Position numbers and translations under genes: made by a program
The notes under the pieces: generated by a model
The model's database searches: none
Seen by the model: the letters and a program-made list of their open reading frames with translations, nothing else
Told to the model about the DNA's origin: nothing
Shown: one piece after another, positions 1-47,229 of the stretch
Numbering within the stretch: position 1 is the stretch's first letter
How the letters are laid out: each line of letters opens with the position of its first letter
Source: Candidatus Marinacidobacterales bacterium
GTDB lineage: Bacteria; Acidobacteriota; Vicinamibacteria; Marinacidobacterales; DATDRI01
Direction: 5' to 3'
DNA length: 64,000 nt
Assembly (NCBI GenBank): GCA_965219415.1
Contig: CBDCNP010000002.1
Coordinates: forward strand, 4,448,001 to 4,512,000

Positions 1-1426
1 AGAACATGAAGGCCCGGTAGAAGATCGACTCGATGCGGTTCATCTGGTCGAAACCGACGCCTTTTACCCGGAGGCCGGAGACCCGGTTGGTGCCGCCCAT
101 GACCATCAGGTAGAAGGCGTGGTTTATGATGCTCGAGTTGATGTGCACGCCCCGAGCATCGAATTCTCCGAGATAACGGACGCTATAGTGGTCCGGGTAT
201 ATGGAGTCGGCGCTTCTGGGATTGGGGAATGAACGTCCAAACTTTCCAAGTTTGACGTAGGCGTCTTCGAACAATACCCAGTCGGCCTTCTGGCGTCCCT
301 TCCCGACCGGCTCGAAGAAGAACTCGACGGCCACCGCCATGATGTCCGAGATCGCCTCGTTAAGTGCCCCGGGCTCGCTGTAGTAGATCAGATCCGACGA
401 GAAGAACGTGACTGCATGAGTAACCTCGTGCGCCACGATGTCGAGGGCGGCGGAGTTGTACGTAGATTCGATACCGTCTCCGTCGCCGTAGTTCACTGAG
501 TTATCCAGAGTGTCGTAGAAGGCATTGTCGTATCCCTCCCTCTGGTGGAAAAAATGGACGAAGCTGATGATGCCCCTCCCGCGGTCGTTGACACCTCTCC
601 TCTTGTGGCGCCTGAAGTAGTAGTCGAGGGTATATCCGGTGTACACGTGGGCATCCACGACGGCGCCGTCGTGCCACTCGTTGTCGAGGTCCGTGGCCAG
701 GAACGAGTCTGTCTCAGCCCGGTAGTCTTCCCAGGTGGCGGTGTCGAAATTGATGTCGTAGGTCCTGATATCGAAGGGCCGGAGTGTGTCGACGGCCCGG
801 TAAGTGCCGGCAGCCTGCTCTGAGGTCATCTTCTTCTCATCACCCCAGGTGCCGACTCCCAGGCCCACGCCGTCGTGCTGGCTCGAGCGAAGAGCGTTCC
901 ACGTTAGGAGGATCTCTCCGGAGTGCGCGTCGATGAACACCGCCTCCAGCGTCTTAGCCCCTCGTACCCTGAGGTGGTACGCGAGCACGTAACGGTCATC
1001 GAGCGGCAGGACCACGAGCTCGACGTCACCGCTGACGCGGGCTCCCGCGGCTCTCCCTGCCAGCGCACGATCAGAGGCTTCGCTCTCGGTCAAGGTCGGG
1101 GTGACGTTGACGTCGATCTTGTCGTAAATGTTGCCGGTAACTGAGAGCACCAGCCCGGCCTGTTTTTGCCAGACCACCTGGCCTCCGAAAACTCGAACCC
1201 CTTGGTGGTACTGATTCATCCTCTCGTGGTAGCGGCCCGGGAAGGTGCCATCGGCCTGGACGCGCTCAAGCTGGAGCCGACCAGAAGCCAACATGAGATC
1301 GACCTCGCTTGCGATAGCCGGGACCTCAGCCGAGTCGCTTGCCCACATGGTCCTGGCTGAGCGGATAGATTGTGCACTCAGTGGGCTAACGATGAGGATG
1401 GCAGTAATCGAAATCAGCAGTCTCAT
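1..1426 (-). CDS. M4 (thermolysin-like) secreted metallopeptidase, runs off window start
   Basis: Manual translation: ATG at 1426 after GGGAGG RBS, signal peptide MRLLISITAILIV, motifs DIVAHEVTH (HEXXH), GALNEAISD, GVHINSS. Confidence 0.9.
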   Translation of the reverse strand, partial: MRLLISITAILIVSPLSAQSIRSARTMWASDSAEVPAIASEVDLMLASGRLQLERVQADGTFPGRYHERMNQYHQGVRVFGGQVVWQKQAGLVLSVTGNIYDKIDVNVTPTLTESEASDRALAGRAAGARVSGDVELVVLPLDDRYVLAYHLRVRGAKTLEAVFIDAHSGEILLTWNALRSSQHDGVGLGVGTWGDEKKMTSEQAAGTYRAVDTLRPFDIRTYDINFDTATWEDYRAETDSFLATDLDNEWHDGAVVDAHVYTGYTLDYYFRRHKRRGVNDRGRGIISFVHFFHQREGYDNAFYDTLDNSVNYGDGDGIESTYNSAALDIVAHEVTHAVTFFSSDLIYYSEPGALNEAISDIMAVAVEFFFEPVGKGRQKADWVLFEDAYVKLGKFGRSFPNPRSADSIYPDHYSVRYLGEFDARGVHINSSIINHAFYLMVMGGTNRVSGLRVKGVGFDQMNRIESIFYRAFMF

Positions 1427-1617
1427 CTTCGCTTCCTCCCTAAAAGCGTGGACGGTGGTTGCCGGTGTCAATTTCACGGCGGCTCGGGCTCAATAGTTGC
1501 CCTCCGCTACCTCTTGGGTGCTTCCGCCATCAAGTGATGGAATGGACTCCTCCACTGACATAGACGGCATCGATGTGCCAAAGTCAGTCGAATACGCATC
1601 GAAAAGGAGGAGTCCGA

Positions 1618-2649
1618 ATGAAAGATACGACAATCGCTGTGGATCTTGCAAAGAACGTCTTCGAGATTGCCATCTCGGGAGAAGCGGGGAAGGTGTCCAA
1701 GCAACTCCGTGTGAGTCGACCCAAATTGGTGTCGTTCTTTGCCAAACAGAGCGCTGCCACCGTGCTTCTCGAAGCCTGCGGCTCGGCTCACTTCTGGGCA
1801 AGGACGTTCCGAAGGTTGGGACACGACGTCGTCCTGCTCCCACCTCACCTCGTGAGGCCGTATCGACGCGGGAGCAAGAACGACCGCGCCGACACGAAGG
1901 CGTTGCTCGAGGCCTACAGGAACGAGGAGCTTCTTCCCGTACCCATCAAGTCCGTGCACCAGCACACCCTCGCTGCGCTCCATCGCCTGCGCTCAGGATG
2001 GCTCTCCACACGGACCGCACGCATCAATGCCGTACGCGGGCTCCTGCGCGAACTCGGATTCATCATCCCAAAGGGCGCTCACTTCGTCGTGCCCGCCCTC
2101 TTCGAACTCGTCGAAGACGCTGATTCTGATTTGCCCGACGTGCTCCGTTCGCATCTCCGTGATGCCTGCTCCGAGATTCGAGAACTCAAGGACAAGTGCG
2201 CTAGCATCGAGCACGAGCTCAAGGCGCTCACCAAGCAGCTTCCTGAAGTCCAACGACTTCTCGCCATTCCCGGCATCGGACTTCTGGCCGCGACCGCCAT
2301 CGTGGGCTTCGTCGGCGATCTTCGCCGCTTCCCATCGGGGCGCCGCTTCTCGAGCTACCTCGGCCTAGTTCCCAAGGAAAACTCCAGTGGCGACATTCGC
2401 CGCCTCGGACGCATCACCAAGCGTGGCGACTCCTACCTCCGTATGCTCCTCACCCAGGGCGGGCGCGCCGTGCTCCGCGCGGCGAACGTCAGCAAGAGCC
2501 CGCCCGACAAGCTCCGCGCCTGGGCTCGGAAGGTCCACCGCTCGCGGGGACACAACAAGGCCGTGATTGCTGTCGCCAACAAACTCGCCCGGATCGTCTG
2601 GGCCGTCTCCACCCGCGAGAGTGAATTCCAGTCGCCGGTGGCCGCTTAG
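1618..2649 (+). CDS. IS110 family recombinase/transposase
   Basis: DLAKNVF, LEACG, KNDRAD (DEDD), IPGIG, GLVP..SSG, ANKLARI motifs; AGGAGG RBS before ATG 1618. Confidence 0.95.
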   Translation: MKDTTIAVDLAKNVFEIAISGEAGKVSKQLRVSRPKLVSFFAKQSAATVLLEACGSAHFWARTFRRLGHDVVLLPPHLVRPYRRGSKNDRADTKALLEAYRNEELLPVPIKSVHQHTLAALHRLRSGWLSTRTARINAVRGLLRELGFIIPKGAHFVVPALFELVEDADSDLPDVLRSHLRDACSEIRELKDKCASIEHELKALTKQLPEVQRLLAIPGIGLLAATAIVGFVGDLRRFPSGRRFSSYLGLVPKENSSGDIRRLGRITKRGDSYLRMLLTQGGRAVLRAANVSKSPPDKLRAWARKVHRSRGHNKAVIAVANKLARIVWAVSTRESEFQSPVAA

Positions 2650-2965
2650 ATTTAGAGGCTCCACTTTCGTGTTTTCCTTTTTCCCTTCCAAAAGAGGCTG
2701 CGACGATACCCATCCAACTGATGGCGTACCGGTCGGACCGGCGCGGGGTCAAGCCAATAGCAACACTGGCCCTAAGAGGTCGTTCAAAGTGATTGGCTCC
2801 TCGCGCGCGGATTTTCCATCATGGCCCGGAGCACCCAAGACGCTCCTCACTGAGGCCGAAGATACGTTTGCAGTCTGACCCACTCGTCACGACGCGATGG
2901 ATGCGCAGCTTCGATGGAAGATTTATTAAGAAAGGGGCGTGACTAGAAAGAAAGGGGCTTGACTA
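2650..2965 (+). ncRNA. Predicted bridge/seek RNA region of IS1111
   Basis: TAGCAACACT (2758-2767) is complementary to the target and TTCCATCAT (2814-2822) is complementary to the predicted circle junction; RNA boundaries unknown. Confidence 0.7.
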
Positions 2966-3205
2966 GAGGAGTCCAGATATGTTGCTACGCCGTGTTTGAA
3001 TGCTAGTGTCAGCTGGCCTGCCTGTATCGGCGAACGCCATCAATAAGGATGTCGGCGTGCACACGAAGGTGTCTCTGAACGTCAGGCACCGTGTGGTCAG
3101 CCCAGCCCGCATCGCCGAAAGAACTGCGTCTCTCGAAATCAGGCTCAAACTCTAGCACACGAGCGGGTTACGCGGCAGCTACCAACACTTGATGGCGGAA
3201 GCACC

Positions 3206-3408
3206 TCTACCTCGAGCTCCCCGTATCCCTCTTGCTCCATGACTTCTACTTCACCTAGACGACGCGTCTTCTTGCGTTCCTTGACCCTTCGTAGCAGACT
3301 TCCCATATCGGCTCCTTTCTTGAGCGGCTTGATTTAGCTTTTGACAACGTCATCAAACCACCCGAGAGGGAGCCGTTTCAAATTTCAACTAAGAGTGGCA
3401 CACATTCC
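3206..3408 (-). pseudogene. IS256-like left end with truncated transposase N-terminus
   Basis: GGAATGTGTGCCACTCTTAGTTGAAATTT end; MGSLLRRVKERKK..GYGELEVE cut by the C end at 3205. Confidence 0.5.
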
Positions 3409-3689
3409 TTGCGGAGGCCACGCAGTTCTTCGAGTTCCTCGCTCGTCAGGGTTCCGGGACCGCCTTCACCACGGTCGATCCTGTCCTGCCTCACCCAGGC
3501 ATAAAGCGACGTCTCCGTCACATCGATATCCCGGGCTACCACGCTCACTGCCTTGCCGCTCTCCCGAACCAGCTGCACTGCCTCTGCTCGAAATTCCTTC
3601 GTGAACTGCCGACGTTTCTTTTTCTCTGCCATCTGAACACCCATATACCTCTCCGTTCGTTAGGTGTCCACTGAAACGAAGCAGGCCCA
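3409..3689 (-). pseudogene. IS3 family left end and truncated orfA
   Basis: TG-start IR containing GTGGACAC; MAEKKKRRQFTKEFRAEAVQLV HTH, ELEELRGLRKE. Confidence 0.8.
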
Positions 3690-37052: not shown

Positions 37053-38053
37053 GGTGCTTCCGCCATCAAGTGTTGCTACGCGGCCGCGGGCAGTGGTACA
37101 GGTGCGGAAGAGAGCGGGTTGCGCGCCCCAGTGAGCACGAAAACCTCGATCCGCGACCACAAAGGAATCGTCGTCACCAAGAAGATGTCTCGAAAGGTGA
37201 GCCGTCGCGTGGTCAGACCGGCCTGCATAGCCGGAGTTCGGATCTCACGTCCGAACTTCAGAGCTCCGTGCGGTCGGACGAAGTTGTAATAGCAACGGAG
37301 CAACTCCAGGTGCTCATTGAGCCTCTCCGTCGAGCGAGCGTGAGAAAGTATTCGTCTCGAAAGGTATGCCGAGCTTTGCCGGATGGTCAGATTCAACCGC
37401 TCGATGAACGACGTGTTCAATGTCGAGGAGTCCTCGGAGTTATTGAGCGCGTCTTCAAATCGCCACGCGGCTCCGTGCAGCGCTCTCCGTTCGACCTTGA
37501 TGATGCGATCGTTCCTGCGCGTTTTTAGGACCTGGCCGTAGAGACACGCTGGACCGAAGAAGCGACGGATGACTTTCTGGTAGAATTCGAATCCATCCGT
37601 GACGATCAGGGGAAGACGTCCGAAATTCATCCGTCTCGAAAGGTCGCAAAACAGAGCGTGAGTGTTCCGGTAGCTTCGCCTTCCCGTCACCGTCGATGGC
37701 CAGAGCCGAGACCAGACTTCGATTGTAACGAAGACCCAACTCGGTGTCTTCTTGTTGCCCGCGAACGTGCGAATCTCGTCGGCTTGAAGCTCTTCGGCAG
37801 CGAAGCCAGCGATCCTTCTGTGATTGAATCGACGACACACTTGGGCTGCCTTCTCGAGCCAGCGGGCGACGGTGTTCCAGGCAATCCCTTTGATCCGGGA
37901 AATCGAGGAAATGCTGACACCCTCGACTCTGAGAGCGATGACCCCATCGAAAATAGCTCTTCGATGTTGGAGACGGTAGTAGGGCGTGCCTTTCGTCGAG
38001 GAGAACGTCTTTCCGCACTCGCCGCACCGGTATCGAAGGCGTTTCCCGGACCT
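37053..38053 (-). mobile_element. IS1-type element, 5'-truncated
   Basis: YRCGECGKTF, ELQADE, TDG, IERLN, YNFVRPH; right end C at 37053. Confidence 0.8.
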
Positions 38054-38063
38054 CGTCCTGTGC

Positions 38064-38883
38064 GGTGCTTCCGCCATCAAGTGTTGCTACGCGGCTGCGG
38101 GCAGTGGTACAGGTGCGGAAGAGACCGGGTTGCGCGCCCTACTGAGCACGAAAACCTCGATCCGCGACCACAAAGGAATCGTCATCGCCAAGAAGATGTC
38201 TCGAAAGGTGAGCCGTCGCGTGGTCAGACCAGCCTGCATAGCCGGAGTTCGGATCTCACGTCCGAACTTCAGAGCTCCGTGCGGTCGGACGAAGTTGTAA
38301 TAGCAACGGAGCAACTCCAGGTGCTCATCGAGCCTCTCCGTCGAGCGAGCGTGGGAAAGCGTTCGTCTCGAAAGGTATGCCGAGCTTTGCCGGATGGTCA
38401 GATTCAACCGCTCGATGAACGACGTGTTCAATGTCGAGGAGTCCTCGGAGTTATTGAGCGCGTCTTCGAATCGCCACGCGGCTCCGTGCAGCGCTCTGCG
38501 TTCGACCTTGATGATACGATCGTTCCTGCGCGTCTTGAGGACCTGGCCGTAGAGACACGCTGGACCGAAGAAGCGACGGATGACCTTCTGGTAGAATTCG
38601 AATCCATCCGTGACGATCAAGGGAAGACGCTCGAAATTCATCCGCCTCGAAAGGTCGCGAAACAGAGCGTGAGTGTTCCGGTAGCTTCGCCTTCCCGTCA
38701 CCGTCGATGGCCAGAGCCGAGACCAGACCTCGATCGTAACGAAGACCCAACTCGGCGTCTTCTTGTTGCCCGCGAACGTGCGAATCTCGTCGGCTTGAAG
38801 CTCTTCGGCAGCGAAGCCGGCGATCCTTCTGTGATTGAATCGACGACACACTTGGGCTGCCTTCTCGAGCCAACGGGCGACGG
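38064..38883 (-). mobile_element. IS1-type element, tandem copy cut by A-B MITE
   Basis: Near-identical to preceding copy. Confidence 0.8.
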
Positions 38884-39030
38884 CGTCCTGTGCCAAAACT
38901 CGGCCCTTTTGAAATAGACCACAAATCAGCAGCTTAGACGCCCTTGGAATCCGCGCAGAATCCAGGGTATTTCGCGCCGCAGGGCTGACTTCCGACCCAT
39001 GGGCTGGCGGATGAATAAATAGAAGGCACA

Positions 39031-39693
39031 CCCGGGTCCTGCGCCTGATGCGGGACGCGCAGCTGCTGGCGCCCCAGCGGCAAGCGGCGCCCGTCGTCGA
39101 GAAGGCGCATACCGGAACCATCGTGACCGAGCGCCCGAATCAGATGTGGGGCATTGACGCCACGGCCACCGTGACGATCGAGGCGGGCCAGGTCACCGTG
39201 TTCGCCGCGGTCGATCATTGCACTGCGGAGTGTGTCGGCATCCATGCGGTCAAACGGGCGACTCGTTTTCAGGCCCTGGATCCGATCCGGCAAGGCGTTA
39301 ACGAGCACTTCGGCGGCTTTCACGCCCATGGCGCGACAGGACTCCAGCTTCGCCACGATCAACGGATCGCAGTTCATGAGAGATGACTTTCAGAACGAAA
39401 TCCGGTTCCTCGGGATCGAGTCCTCGCCCGCCTTTGTCCGTGAACCCGAGGGCAACGGCTGCATCGAACGTCTTTTCAAAACGCTCAAGGAACAATTGCT
39501 CTGGGTTCGCCACTTCCGTTCCATACCGGAACTGTTTCACGCCCTTCAGGAGTTCCGCGCTCTCTACAACCGATCCTGGTTGATCGAGCGCCTTGGATTT
39601 CAATCTCCGGTTCAGGCGCGAGAACGTCTTGCGCTCGAACCGGCTGCTTGATTATAGTGGGCTTATTCTGTCCAAGAAATCAGGGGCGCAACA
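39031..39693 (+). pseudogene. IS3/IS481-like integrase 3' fragment with right end
   Basis: PNQMWGIDAT, NGCIERLFKTLKE; frameshift near 39360. Confidence 0.75.
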
Positions 39694-41333: not shown

Positions 41334-42618
41334 TGTCCATCATCATTATCTGTCCGGGACTGGACTCTAGGCCCGGACTGCCCTCGAGCACATGCTGGAG
41401 AGCGTGGTCAGCGCGCGAGGGAAGGTGCTGAGGACGAACTTCTCGGCGACCAGCCGAATAACGCGAGCGACCAAGCTGACTCAGGCTGCCTCTCGCCACT
41501 CGTATCGATGGTGCAATCCACCGACTCGCGGCAGTGCGACTACTTTCGCCGTAGGAGATGGTCGGTGCGTGACCGCTCTCAAGCTCGGTGTGTCCTTGTT
41601 CAGCCCCAAGTGGCAACGGTCCTCGTGATAGTAGCTGATGTAAGCTTGCACGAGCCGGATGAGATGACATGCGCCGAGAACCACGACGTGCTCAAGGAGC
41701 TCGTGACGGCAGCTGCCGACCCACCGCTCCGCAGTTCCGTTTTGCCATGGGCTGCGAAACGAAGTGCGAACGGGTTTTGTGCCCGTTGCTTTGATGAACT
41801 CGATGACCGCAGCGCTAAAGATGAAGTCGCGATCGAAGATGAGATATTTCGGAGCAGTGTCGTAGGGAAACGCCTCACGCAGTTGCTGAATAACCCAAGC
41901 AGACGTCGGGTGGAACGTGGCGTTGAAGTGAACGATGTGCCGACGGCCGTGCTCGATGACGAAGAAGCCATACAGCAACCGGAGCGAAGCAGTGGGCACG
42001 GTGAACAGATCCATGGCGGCGATATCGTCTTTATGGTTGCGCAAGAAAGCCATCCATCGCTTCAGCTGGTCGGGCTCCGCAGGATGCCGCGGTAGGTATC
42101 GCGACACCGTAATCTCGGAGATGATGAAACCGAGCTTGGTGAGCTCAGCATGGATGCGTGGCGCCCCCCAGCCGTCTTGCGCCATCGTGCGGACGAGGCG
42201 GCGAATCTCGGCATCAATCCGAGGCCGACCGGGATGGCGGCGCTGCGACATCTTTGCCCAGTACCGTCGGAATCGGTCGCGATGCCAACGGGCCACGGTG
42301 TCCGCGTGGACGATGAGCAGGCGGCTCGCCCACACGGGCCACGAACCTCGAAGAGCAACCCAGAAAGCCCGTTCCGTGTCTCCGAGCGGTGGGCGTGGGC
42401 GCTCTTTCTTCAGCGCCGCCACTTGCTGCCGCAAAGCGACGTTCTCCAACACCAGGTCGGCGCGGCGCCGACACATCGCCCGAATGGCACGGACACCAAG
42501 TGAGACGAGGAAGACAACAACGTTGAGCATAGCGGCGGAGTTTCGCCGTCTTCGGCCCGGAATTCAAGCGGAGCGTAAGTCCTTGATTTCGTGGGCGGAG
42601 CAGTTTTGACGATGCACA
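41334..42618 (-). mobile_element. Element F copy 2 (CDS 41481-42530)
   Basis: Near-identical to 34711-35996. Confidence 0.88.
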
Positions 42619-42961
42619 GGTAGAGAATTCCAGTATCTACCTAGAGGAGTTCGCGCGCACCATGGTCGGGCAAGAGGAGCTTCACCAGATGGAGCTCAAG
42701 AAGATGCTCCGCGACTACAGCGAGGCGTCCGGCACCGACTAGCCATCTCCGCATTTCGTCGATGTCCCTGGTTCGAAGCTTTTTCTACGTGTGGGAGAAG
42801 CGGCTCGCGCGGTCGAGGGCTACACACCAACATCTCCATCGACCAACTTGCCGATCGCGTCGTGTCCAAAAACACAAACATACTCAAGACCCACGCGCCG
42901 GGGACGCATAAGGGGAAGATTTTGTATTGCAGTAGGTTACATCAGATTCTAATATCACCGG
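42619..42961 (+). repeat. Duplicate of 4039-4380 (bacterioferritin 3' end plus D end)
   Basis: Near-identical direct repeat. Confidence 0.9.
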
Positions 42962-43049: not shown

Positions 43050-43304
43050 GGAGTTGCTCCGTTGCTATTACAACTTCGTCCGACCGCACGGAGCTCTGAA
43101 GTTCGGACGTGAGATCCGAACTCCGGCTATGCAGGCCGGTCTCACCACGCGACGGCTCACCTTTCGAGACATCTTCTTGGCGACGACGATTCCTTTGTGG
43201 TCGCGGATCGAGGTTTTCCTGCTCAGTAGGGCGCGCAACCCGGTCTCTTCCGCACCTGTACCACTGCCCGCAGCCGCGTAGCAACACTTGATGGCGGAAG
43301 CACC
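43050..43304 (+). mobile_element. IS1-type 3' fragment with C end
   Basis: LELLRCYYNFVRPH..PAAA. Confidence 0.8.
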
Positions 43305-44250: not shown

Positions 44251-45205
44251 GGTGCTTCCGCCATCAAGTGTTGCTACGCGGCTGCGGGCAGTGGTACAGG
44301 TGCGGAAGAGACCGGGTTGCGCACCCTAGTGAGCCAGAAAACCTCGATCCGCAACCACAAAGGAATCGTCGTCGCCAAGAAGATGTCTCGAAAGGTGAGC
44401 CGTCGCGTGGTCAGACCAGCCTGCATAGCCGGAGTTCGGATCTCACGTCCGAACTTCAGAGCTCCGTGCGGTCGGACGAAGTTGTAATAGCAACGGAGCA
44501 ACTCCAGGTGCTCATCGAGCCTCTCCGTCGAGCGAGCGTGGGAAAGTGTTCGTCTCGAAAGGTATGCCGAGCTTTGCCGGATGATCAGATTCAACCGCTC
44601 GATGAACGACGTGTTCAATGTCGAGGAGTCCTCGGAGTTATTGAGCGCGTCTTCGAATCGCCACGCGGCTCCGTGCAGCGCTCTCCGTTCGACCTTGATG
44701 ATACGATCGTTCCTGCGCGTTTTTAGGACCTGGCCGTAGAGACACGCTGGACCGAAGAAGCGACGGATGACCTTCTGGTAGAATTCGAATCCATCCGTGA
44801 CGATCAAGGGAAGACGCTCGAAATTCATCCGCCTCGAAAGGTCGCGAAACAGAGCGTGAGTGTTCCGGTAGCTTCGCCTTCCCGTCACCGTCGATGGCCA
44901 GAGCCGAGACCAGACCTCGATTGTAACGAAGACCCAACTCGGCGTCTTCTTGTTGCCCGCGAACGTGCGAATCTCGTCGGCTTGAAGCTCTTCGGCAGCG
45001 AAGCCGGCGATCCTTCTGTGATTGAATCGACGACACACTTGGGCTGCCTTCTCAAGCCAGCGGGCGACGGTGTTCCAGGCAATCCCTTTGATCCGGGAAA
45101 TCGCAGCAATGCTGACACCCTCGACTCTGAGAGCGATGACCCCATCGAAAGTAGCTCTTCGATGTTGGAGACGGTAGTAGGGCGTGCCTTTCGTCGAAGA
45201 GAACG
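44251..45205 (-). mobile_element. IS1-type element cut at its 5' side by element F
   Basis: Same transposase as 37076; C end at 44251. Confidence 0.8.
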
Positions 45206-46491
45206 TGTGCATCGTCAAAACTGCTCCGCCCACGAAATCAAGGACTTACGCTCCGCTTGAATTCCGGGCCGAAGACGGCGAAACTCCGCCGCTATGCTCA
45301 ACGTTGTTGTCTTCCTCGTCTCACTTGGCGTCCGTGCCATTCGGGCGATGTGTCGGCGCCGCGCCGACCTGGTGTTGGAGAACGTCGCTTTGCGGCAGCA
45401 AGTGACGGCGCTGAAGAAAGAGCGCCCACGCCCACCGCTCGACGACACGGAACGGGTTTTCTGGGTTGCCCTTCGAGGTTCGTGGCCCGTGTGGGCGAGC
45501 CGCCTGCTCATCGTCCACGCGGACACCGTAGCCCGTTGGCATCGCGATCGATTCCGACGGTACTGGGCAAATATCTCGCAGCGCCGCCATCCCGGTCGGC
45601 CTCGGATTGATGCCGAGATTCGTCGCCTCGTCCGCACGATGGCGCAAGACGGCTGGGGGGCGCCACGCATCCATGCTGAGCTCACCAAGCTCGGTTTCAT
45701 CATCTCCGAGATCACGGTGTCGCGATACCTGCCGCGGCGTCCCGCGGAGCCCGACCAGCTGAAACGATGGATGGCTTTCTTGCGCAACCATAAAGACGAT
45801 ATCGCCGCCATGGATCTGTTCACCGTGCCCACCGCGTCGCTCCGGCTGCTGTACGGCTTCTTCGTCATCGAGCACGGTCGCCGGCACATCGTTCACTTCA
45901 ACGCCACGTTCCACCCGACGTCTGCTTGGGTTATTCAGCAACTCCGCGAGGCGTTTCCCTACGACACCGCTCCGAGATATCTCATCTTCGATCGCGACTT
46001 CATCTTTAACACTGCGGTCATCGAGTTCATCAAGGCAACGGGCACAAAACCCGTTCGCACTTCGTTTCGCAGCCCATGGCAAAACGGAACCGCGGAGCGG
46101 TGGGTCGGCAGCTGCCGTCGCGAGCTCCTTGAGCACGTCGTGGTTCTCGGTGCATGTCATCTCATCCGGCTCGTGCGAGCTTACATCAGCTACTATCATG
46201 AGGACCGTTGCCACTTGGGGCTGAACAAGGACACACCGAGCTTGAGGACGGTCACGCACCGACCGTCTCCTACGGCGAAAGTCGTCGCACTGCCGCGAGT
46301 CGGTGGACTGCACCATCGATACGAGTGGCGAGAGGCAGCCTGAGTCAGCTTGGTCGCTCGCGTTACTCGGCTGGTCGCCGAGAAGTTCGTCCTCAGCACC
46401 TTCCCTCGCGCGCTGACCACGCTCTCCAGCATGTGCTCGAGGGCGGTCCGGGCCCTAGAGTCCAGTCCCGGATTAATAATGATGATGGACA
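45206..46491 (+). mobile_element. Element F copy 3 (CDS 45294-46343)
   Basis: 1286 bp, intact ORF. Confidence 0.88.
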
Positions 46492-46847: not shown

Positions 46848-47229
46848 GAAGAAGAGACCATCTTAGAGGAGACCGGATGTCCCAATTGAAAAATTTGCGC
46901 ACTTCCCTTGTTCTCGTAGCCCTGCTTGCCGCCACGCCTTCCTTCGCCGGCGACGGCGAAATCACCGGCGGTGCTTGCGCCATTTACTGTTGGTGATGTG
47001 TGCGCATCCCTTTGCAAAAGAGGCGCTTACGCTCCATTTAGCGCGCAGCGAAGGTCACGAGCGCTATTTGGGCTGTAATTTAATGCACCATATAGCCTTA
47101 GCGTCATCTCACCAACACTTGATGGCGGAAGCACCGAAGTTGGCGCAAATAGAGTGCTGGATGATTTCGAGGTTTGGTCAATTCGAATTCCGCTGTGCCT
47201 TCTATTCATTCATCCGCGCGCACCGAACT

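Follow-up and report, generated by a model that had tools for sequence, protein, structure and literature searches.

Members of the IS1111 group of the IS110 family of insertion sequences (IS) are marked, among other features, by subterminal inverted repeats, usually of 11-13 bp and accompanied by short terminal extensions, and by a long non-coding region 3' of the transposase gene (PMC11187229 sections 4 and 6). Insertion that is specific for site and orientation and leaves the target unduplicated, and a circular form whose abutted ends create a junction promoter, also belong to the group. Their seekRNAs come from this downstream region, and the segment matching the top strand of the target lies 5' of the segment matching the bottom strand, with the two matches overlapping (PMC11187229 sections 4 and 9). 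The architecture of bridge RNAs has also been described (PMC11208160 sections 7 and 12), and in IS1111 orthologues the donor-binding bases were assigned to a multi-branch loop (PMC11208160 section 12). Some of these elements choose other mobile elements as targets: according to published accounts, IS4321 and IS5075 insert in the terminal repeats of Tn21-family transposons, and 20 of the 21 IS1111 copies of Coxiella burnetii lie in QMITE2, a miniature inverted-repeat transposable element (MITE) (PMC5896051). Here we analyzed a 64,000-nucleotide stretch of a Candidatus Marinacidobacterales genome (contig CBDCNP010000002.1, positions 4,448,001 to 4,512,000 of the forward strand; hereafter the window), which carries an IS1111-group element inside a terminal repeat shared by an IS1-like IS and a MITE. 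We propose, with a probability of about 0.85, that guide-RNA-directed insertion of this IS1111-group element into the terminal repeat of another IS is the best explanation of the locus.

The IS4321/IS5075 case is alike in its subterminal repeats and in the occupation of one position, in one orientation, inside the terminal repeat of another transposon. The host differs, being a Tn3-family transposon on enterobacterial plasmids there and an IS1-like IS/MITE repeat in an uncultured acidobacterial lineage here, and the transposases of IS4321/IS5075 are only 33-34% identical to that of the present element; the ISPa25 family, at 45.9% identity, is the nearest among named plasmid transposases. Similarly, the founding member IS1111 of C. 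burnetii lands in a repeated non-autonomous mobile element; its site is a palindrome resembling repetitive extragenic palindromic (REP) sequences inside the MITE, whereas here it is a terminal repeat common to an autonomous IS and a MITE. Because IS4321/IS5075 and IS1111/QMITE2 already target mobile elements, the novelty of the locus is lower than was held in an earlier note on this DNA; both the mechanism and the habit are already known, and the element is a clear new example of them. A narrow literature search found no IS110/IS1111 element aimed at IS1-family repeats; the supplementary tables of PMC11187229 and PMC11208160 may list relatives.

The element is 1443 bp long (window positions 1537-2979, + strand) and has TG on both sides. 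Excision of 1537-2979 plus one TG joins the flanks (1517-1536 and from 2982) into GGTGCTTCCGCCATCAAG-TG-TTGCTACGC; the net inserted DNA is 1445 bp, that is, the 1443 bp and one TG. The features of the element and of its immediate host are as follows.

1517-1536, + strand: outer 20 bp of the host repeat, GGTGCTTCCGCCATCAAGTG, ending in the crossover dinucleotide TG; found before all 33 left ends, with three one-base variants
1537-1542, + strand: left terminal extension, ATGGAA
1543-1556, + strand: left subterminal inverted repeat, TGGACTCCTC(CACT), pairing with 2962-2975 and common to relatives
1618-2649, + strand: transposase gene (343 amino acids) with a DEDD/RuvC-like N-terminal and a C-terminal Tnp domain, from profile matches
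2930-2969, + strand: two 20-bp direct repeats, GAAAGGGGC(G/T)TGACTAGA(AA/GG)
2962-2975, + strand: right subterminal inverted repeat, GAGGAGTCCA, partner of TGGACTCCTC
2976-2979, + strand: right terminal extension, GATA
2980-3205, + strand: TG and the remainder of the approximately 244-bp MITE-like host
3183-3205, - strand: the other MITE terminal repeat, GGTGCTTCCGCCATCAAGTGTTGGTAG, unoccupied

The subterminal repeats TGGACTCCTC and GAGGAGTCCA agree perfectly over 10 bp and at 12 of 14 positions overall, as is characteristic of the IS1111 group. Extensions of 7/3 or 6/3 are described for this group (PMC11187229 section 4), compared with 6 + 4 + 2 (ATGGAA, GATA, TG) here. The non-coding stretch after the stop codon (2649) extends for 330 nt to the element end (2979), which again agrees with the group. 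The transposase contains the domains PF01548 and PF02371 and scores 302.9 bits against NCBIfam NF033542 ("IS110 family RNA-guided transposase"; cutoff 140). In an alignment with 14 relatives, residues D9, E52 and D92 were invariant, D89 was nearly so, and the GLxPxxxSSG motif (GLVPKENSSG in this transposase) was kept. The C-terminal domain also matches the solved transposases of IS621 (E = 9e-8) and ISCro4.

A survey of the whole genome (8.05 Mb in three contigs) detected 30 complete copies of the element with 99.4-100% identity, together with a few fragments, and the transposase open reading frames (ORFs) were intact among the copies. The 24 copies of 1443 bp comprised only two distinct sequences, and the element copies were 99.97% identical. 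All 33 left ends adjoin the 20-bp host repeat segment GGTGCTTC(C/T)GC(C/T)ATCAAGTG, three one-base variants included, and the right flank reads TGTTGCTA in 29 of the 30 complete copies and TGTTGGCG in the remaining one. Site and orientation are thus the same for 29 of 30 complete copies, with no target duplication and with only the shared TG ambiguous. The earlier note had proposed a guide aimed at the repeat of another transposon, and these counts bear it out; this genome shows none of the copies in unrelated targets that it had named as the refuting outcome. The host parts to the right of the element were all different (16/16 of the IS type and 11/11 of the MITE type), and 29 of 30 copies had distinct upstream sequences. 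Since near-identical element copies sit beside differing host DNA, we concluded that they are separate, recent insertions.

The choice of site extends to the right half of the repeat. Genome-wide, 511 repeat-like sites were found, of which 478 are empty. Occupancy was 29/113 for sites with TTGCTA compared with 1/348 for sites with another right half, mostly TTGGTG or TTGGCG (Fisher p = 2e-18), and when the comparison was confined to sites with an identical left half it was 29/104 compared with 1/53 (p = 2.5e-5). The cognate target sequence is GGTGCTTCCGCCATCAAGTGTTGCTACG, with TTGGTG and TTGGCG as natural variants of its right half, and 84 cognate sites in the genome are empty. The opposite end of the host IS, TTGGCGGC, is essentially never used. 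Four empty targets in the window had been claimed in the earlier note, and the 26-mer GCTTCCGCCATCAAGTGTTGCTACGC is indeed uninterrupted at four places, starting at 37056, 38067 and 44254 (+ strand) and spanning 43276-43301 (- strand); 100 shuffles gave no match to it. The shorter string AGTGTTGCTA occurs five times in the window, in the four empty repeats and in the guide at 2758-2767 (- strand), where 0.05 occurrences are expected.

37053-37081, + strand: empty cognate target, the repeat end of an IS1-like element
38064-38092, + strand: empty cognate target; the stop codon of the host transposase ORF 38087-39121 (TAG, - strand) falls within its TTGCTA
43276-43304, - strand: empty cognate target
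44251-44279, + strand: empty cognate target
47113-47135, - strand: near-cognate repeat with an identical left half and the right half TTGGTG, unoccupied

The element targets one of the terminal inverted repeats of an IS of about 1.2 kb (for example, L061 101-1301, about 1201 bp). The targeted end lies just past the host transposase stop codon, and the stop TAG corresponds to the CTA of TTGCTA. A MITE of about 245 bp ends in the same terminal repeat, and it is a MITE, spanning 1517-3205, that hosts the copy in the window. Eleven empty MITEs of 240-250 bp and nine of about 1690 bp carrying the element were counted, and at least four host body types are occupied. Both host ends share GGTGCTTCCGC(C/A)AT(C/T)AAGTGTTG, with terminal repeats of about 23 bp. 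The terminal repeats of IS1 begin with GGTG. The "IS1-type" label that the earlier note gave to the host holds insofar as this is a short IS with terminal repeats of about 23 bp, but the host transposase falls below the curated IS1 thresholds: it scored 40-61 bits against NF033558 (cutoff 100) and 20-22 bits against PF03400 (cutoff 24.1), and was 25-31% identical to annotated plasmid IS1 family transposases. Because of these sub-threshold scores and this low identity, "IS1-like" is a fair label, whereas "IS1" is not proven. Repeat-like ends of the IS1-like superfamily number 25 in the window, an IS-dense region. Of the 23 positions common to both host repeats, 22 survive insertion at the outer junction GGTGCTTCCGCCATCAAGTG-ATG (1517-1539), so that a host IS or MITE with the element inside it might remain mobile.

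To examine the RNA, a consensus fold was derived from the non-coding regions of 12 relatives (46-62% amino acid identity in the transposase; 400 further genomes of the same phylum were searched). In this fold, P3 and P4 open into an internal loop that surrounds P5, and the P6/P7 hairpin comes next.

2696-2875, + strand: predicted seek/bridge RNA scaffold, from consensus structure and covariation
2696-2701 with 2870-2875, + strand: helix P0, which closes the junction
2719-2724 (UGAUGG) with 2816-2821, + strand: helix P1, 93% paired, with compensatory changes in 4/6 pairs
2752-2798, + strand: predicted target-binding domain (P4, internal loop and P5), from the minimum-energy fold and the consensus
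2752-2758 with 2792-2798, + strand: helix P4
2758-2767, + strand: right target guide, UAGCAACACU (loop 2759-2766), complementary to the top strand AG-TG-TTGCTA
2767-2771 with 2778-2782, + strand: hairpin P5
2783-2791, + strand: left target guide, UUCAAAGUG, in which AAGUG (2787-2791), of the same sense as AAG-TG in the top strand, lies directly against P4 as it does in relatives
2814-2822, + strand: candidate right donor guide, UUCCAUCAU, complementary to TG-ATGGAA (core and left end)
2823-2826 with 2854-2857 and 2828-2832 with 2842-2846, + strand: hairpin P6/P7, between the two donor-matching segments
2860-2866, + strand: candidate left donor guide, AGAUACG, in the sense of the right end AGATA plus the dinucleotide, unpaired in the consensus

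The structure of the RNA was supported by covariation. In the alignment of the 12 relatives, which was made without the model, 91% of cells were paired compared with 33-47% in slid controls, and nine pairs showed a compensatory change compared with 2.8 in shuffles (0/500 reached nine). When 90 distinct sequences were aligned to the model, 89% were paired (27-44% in slid controls) and 36/43 pairs were compensatory; these counts lean towards structure, since related sequences were used and their alignment was fitted to the model. The covariance model found the RNA 3' of the transposase gene in every relative tested, down to 33% protein identity, and it also matched the DNA 3' of the transposases of ISPa25 (95 bits), a Klebsiella IS110-family element (62 bits) and IS5075 (32.5 bits, E = 8e-9). 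A search of 1400-3300 against Rfam (E-value mode) returned no bridge or seek RNA family and only a sub-threshold microRNA match. A long-range closure in the 332-nt fold was dropped, and the 185-nt conserved scaffold was preferred. As a separate observation, some copies have extra tandem 3' parts that hold the RNA: L062:2580-3848 (genome G401) contains an array of four consecutive RNA modules, in which the right end is joined to internal target-like sites such as G-TG-ATTGCTG, and one copy in the present genome (G000:C3:3315127-3315411) is followed by an extra 285-bp piece that starts at about the start of the RNA scaffold.

All coordinates and strings of the earlier note were present in the sequence, namely, TAGCAACACT (2758-2767) and AAGTG (2787-2791) on the target side and TTCCATCAT (2814-2822) and AGATACG (2860-2866) on the donor side. 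Both the minimum-energy fold and the consensus place AGCAACAC on the 5' side and UUCAAAGUG on the 3' side of the P4/P5 internal loop. Furthermore, UAGCAACACU precedes AAGUG and their target matches overlap on AGTG, which is the arrangement of seekRNAs. A 10-nt complement covering the core was reached in 3/2000 dinucleotide shuffles of the non-coding region, and both target matches together in 1/2000.

More importantly, the guide loops follow the flanks across the family. Among the relatives, the 5' loop is complementary to the right flank at 9/9 positions in L032, L040 and L041, at 8 in L036/L038 and at 8/9 in L034 and L039, and the 3' loop repeats the left flank at 5-6 nt in L034, L036 and L041. 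Over 73 distinct guide pairs, each guide matched its own flank better than the flanks of others in 5000/5000 permutations, and 29/73 right guides reached 8 or 9 of 9 matches compared with 3.5% in unrelated pairings. Among relatives, the guides thus follow the target on a conserved scaffold, as is expected of a seek or bridge RNA. One copy each of IS5075 and ISPa25 served as positive controls, and in both the same loop and junction positions matched their own flanks and right ends; in the IS5075-family copy, 9 nt of the loop are complementary to the right flank, and 8 nt of the right end recur in the donor segment. A single register between the right target guide and the crossover was sought across relatives and could not be fixed.

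The two segments on the donor side, arranged around P6/P7 in the order that the target guides take around P5, match the left and right ends of the element and probably hold the donor, that is, the circle junction or the element ends, a role that we infer from these matches. The 9-nt donor complement was reached in 10/2000 dinucleotide shuffles of the non-coding region. The UUCCAUCAU segment changes in step with the left end in L036/L038 and L042, but not in the L032 group, L045/L048 and L047. Unpaired AGAUACG is kept without change in the 12 relatives, which have GATACG as their right junction; across more distant subfamilies, this segment varies with the right end.

The same RNA can be set beside those of described systems. 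The ISPa25/ISKpn4/ISPst6 elements of the IS1111 group share with the present element a homologous RNA and the order in which the top-strand match comes first (PMC11187229 section 9), and differ from it in having attC as their target; moreover, the seekRNAs of ISKpn4 and ISPst6 have been sequenced or purified, whereas those of ISPa25 and of the present element are predictions. As in the IS621 bridge RNA, two-sided guides flank a hairpin in an internal loop and contain the crossover dinucleotide (PMC11208160 section 7), and the target and donor modules are separate; the C-terminal domain of the transposase matches that of IS621, as noted above. Unlike in IS621, the RNA is encoded downstream of the gene and its guides come in the opposite order; its donor segments occupy a multi-branch junction, one of them partly in a helix, a layout that fits the published remark on the multi-branch loop of IS1111 (PMC11208160 section 12). 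The earlier note had expected the guides in two internal loops; the target segments do face each other in the P4/P5 loop, whereas the donor segments lack a simple second loop.

Two additional genomes informed the choice of site. In G401, all 13 distinct copies of a 98%-identical element lie in the same host repeat. In G402, a 93%-identical element has the same right target guide, and 3/9 complete copies lie in the repeat and 6/9 in unrelated DNA; all nine keep (A/G)AGTG on the left, including the six outside the repeat, and four of these six have TTGCT on the right. Since the sites of the G402 copies outside the repeat have little in common beyond the guide-matched motif, it is this short motif, and not the repeat as such, that attracts the element. 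In the G402 variant (L143-L171, odd numbers, and L063), which shows a looser site choice, AGAUAUG and UCCGUCAU replace AGAUACG and UCCAUCAU. Taken as a whole, the 30 fresh insertions, 84 empty cognate sites and about 350 near-cognate sites of one genome make a clean natural data set of RNA-guided transposition for the less studied IS1111 branch, to which a sister genome with the same habit is added; the variant of the third genome at partial matches provides a natural specificity and off-target profile. The case also documents transposons parasitising transposons in an uncultured acidobacterial lineage and leaves the known mechanism unchanged.

Thus, we proposed a model in which the DEDD transposase would be guided by an RNA made from the 3' non-coding region of the element itself and bound by the protein. 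Two short guides in one internal loop would jointly specify CATCAAG-TG-TTGCTA, a site that this genome contains mainly as positions 12-26 of one host terminal repeat, the one downstream of the host transposase gene. Insertion accordingly falls there in a single orientation, 20 bp from the outer host end and 3 bp beyond the stop codon of the host transposase. The further segments UUCCAUCAU and AGAUACG, on either side of the second hairpin, would pair with the ends of the element, presumably joined in a circular intermediate. The data show the specificity for site and orientation, the covarying RNA structure and the agreement of guide loops with flanks among relatives, whereas production and binding of the RNA, the circular form and the part played by the donor segments are inferred.

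Several observations weigh against this model or temper its support. The contiguous match of the left guide is only 5 nt (AAGTG), which 348/2000 dinucleotide shuffles reach, so that this match is weak alone. One relative, L047, has no match to its own right flank, and the loop position that faces the crossover dinucleotide shifts by 1-3 nt among relatives in our reading of the alignments. Because alignments A3 and A5 followed the model and the relatives are not independent, the shuffle and permutation counts overstate the support. The consensus structure has an energy of -52.6 kcal/mol as drawn and -59.7 when enforced, compared with -71.9 for the minimum-energy fold, with the difference lying outside the target loop, and the 185-nt fold was only modestly better than shuffles (z = -2.2; 8/200). 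On the donor side, 6 of the 9 nt of UUCCAUCAU (2816-2821) sit in helix P1, and because this helix covaries, UUCCAUCAU as a free loop was rejected; of the two donor guides named in the earlier note, it is AGAUACG that stands as an unpaired segment of the junction. AGAUACG, in turn, has C where the junction of the window element has T. This one-base mismatch is best seen as an inherited feature of the family, given its invariance in the 12 relatives, the changes among subfamilies and the AGAUAUG of the G402 variant, an exact fit to a TG junction. Finally, neither a joint of right end to left end nor usable RNA ends were found in the contigs of public runs (X1, X2, X17 and X18), whose cover is fragmented, and the pieces of related copies in contigs of RNA-labelled libraries do not show transcription.

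The flanks shared by the copies might alternatively reflect common descent, with one or a few insertions followed by movement of the composite by the IS1-like transposase. The repeat positions retained at the outer junction would permit such mobilisation, nine MITE-plus-element composites of about 1690 bp exist, and two copies have the same upstream flank. Nevertheless, the adjoining host parts all differ beside 99.97% identical element copies, several host body types are occupied, two-thirds of the G402 copies (6/9) lie outside the repeat at sites with part or all of the guide-matched motif, and the guide loops track flanks family-wide; we therefore regard this explanation as improbable.

Guide-RNA-directed insertion also accounts better for the data than recognition of the site by the transposase itself or by a host factor bound to the repeat, with incidental RNA complementarity. 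Such recognition would suit a short left guide match and an RNA that is here a prediction, but conservation of the scaffold while loops and targets change together, the rarity of the 10-nt complement in shuffles and the published reprogramming of IS1111 and IS110 members (PMC11187229 abstract and section 4) all argue against it, and we consider it very improbable. Similarly little weight is given to the idea that the element is now inactive and the pattern a fossil of earlier targeting. The lack of a circle junction in the contigs of public runs and the mismatch of AGAUACG to the present junction are compatible with it, but near-identical copies (two distinct sequences among the 24 of standard length, out of 30 in all), intact ORFs and 84 empty cognate sites point instead to very recent activity.

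The dinucleotide at the junctions deserves separate consideration. A related element (57% amino acid identity) is present in three genomes of one genus (G309, G385 and G393). Its empty sites carry the repeated sequence TTCACCA-CG-GGCTGCT, and its junctions have TG on the left in 35/35 copies and CG on the right in 25/27. From the dinucleotides of junctions and empty sites together, the left TG is supplied by the element and the right CG by the target. In this element, the target guides and the right-end guide carry CG and the left-end guide is the complement of TG; the dinucleotides given by the two donor segments are not the same, one being CA (read as TG) and the other CG. Tentatively, donor and target may differ in their crossover dinucleotide in this clade; the junctions could then arise through exchange of a single strand pair, completed by replication, or the true overlap could be a single base. 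Separately, the element may ride with its IS1-like host rather than disable it, as a tolerated parasite of a parasite. We hold this reading to be rather doubtful.

Copies in this genome contain one, two or three units of the 20-bp direct repeat that adjoins the right subterminal repeat, and copies of 1423 and 1463 bp have one 20-bp unit fewer and more, respectively, than the standard length. Every unit contains (G/T)TGACT, a possible -35 box for a junction promoter. By its sequence and position (17 nt from the end), TTGACT at 2959-2964 could act as the -35 box of a promoter formed at the circle junction, and relatives have TTGAC(A/G) at a similar distance from the element end. A scan of the linear element copy for sigma-70-type promoters found none.

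Other mobile DNA and ORFs were observed in the window. Two inverted copies (97% complementary) of another IS, at 41370-42621 and 45203-46454, interrupt two IS1-like copies, and their ORFs of 349 amino acids carry an rve_3 integrase core (IS3/IS481-like, below cutoffs). To the left of the MITE, an ORF at 2-1477 (- strand) that runs off the window start contains HEVTH, an HExxH motif typical of zinc metalloproteases, and ends about 40 bp from the MITE. Just to the right of the MITE, an 88-amino-acid ORF (3378-3644, - strand) has an HTH_Tnp_1 domain (E = 1.7e-15) and is of the kind that IS3-type elements typically have as a small first ORF.

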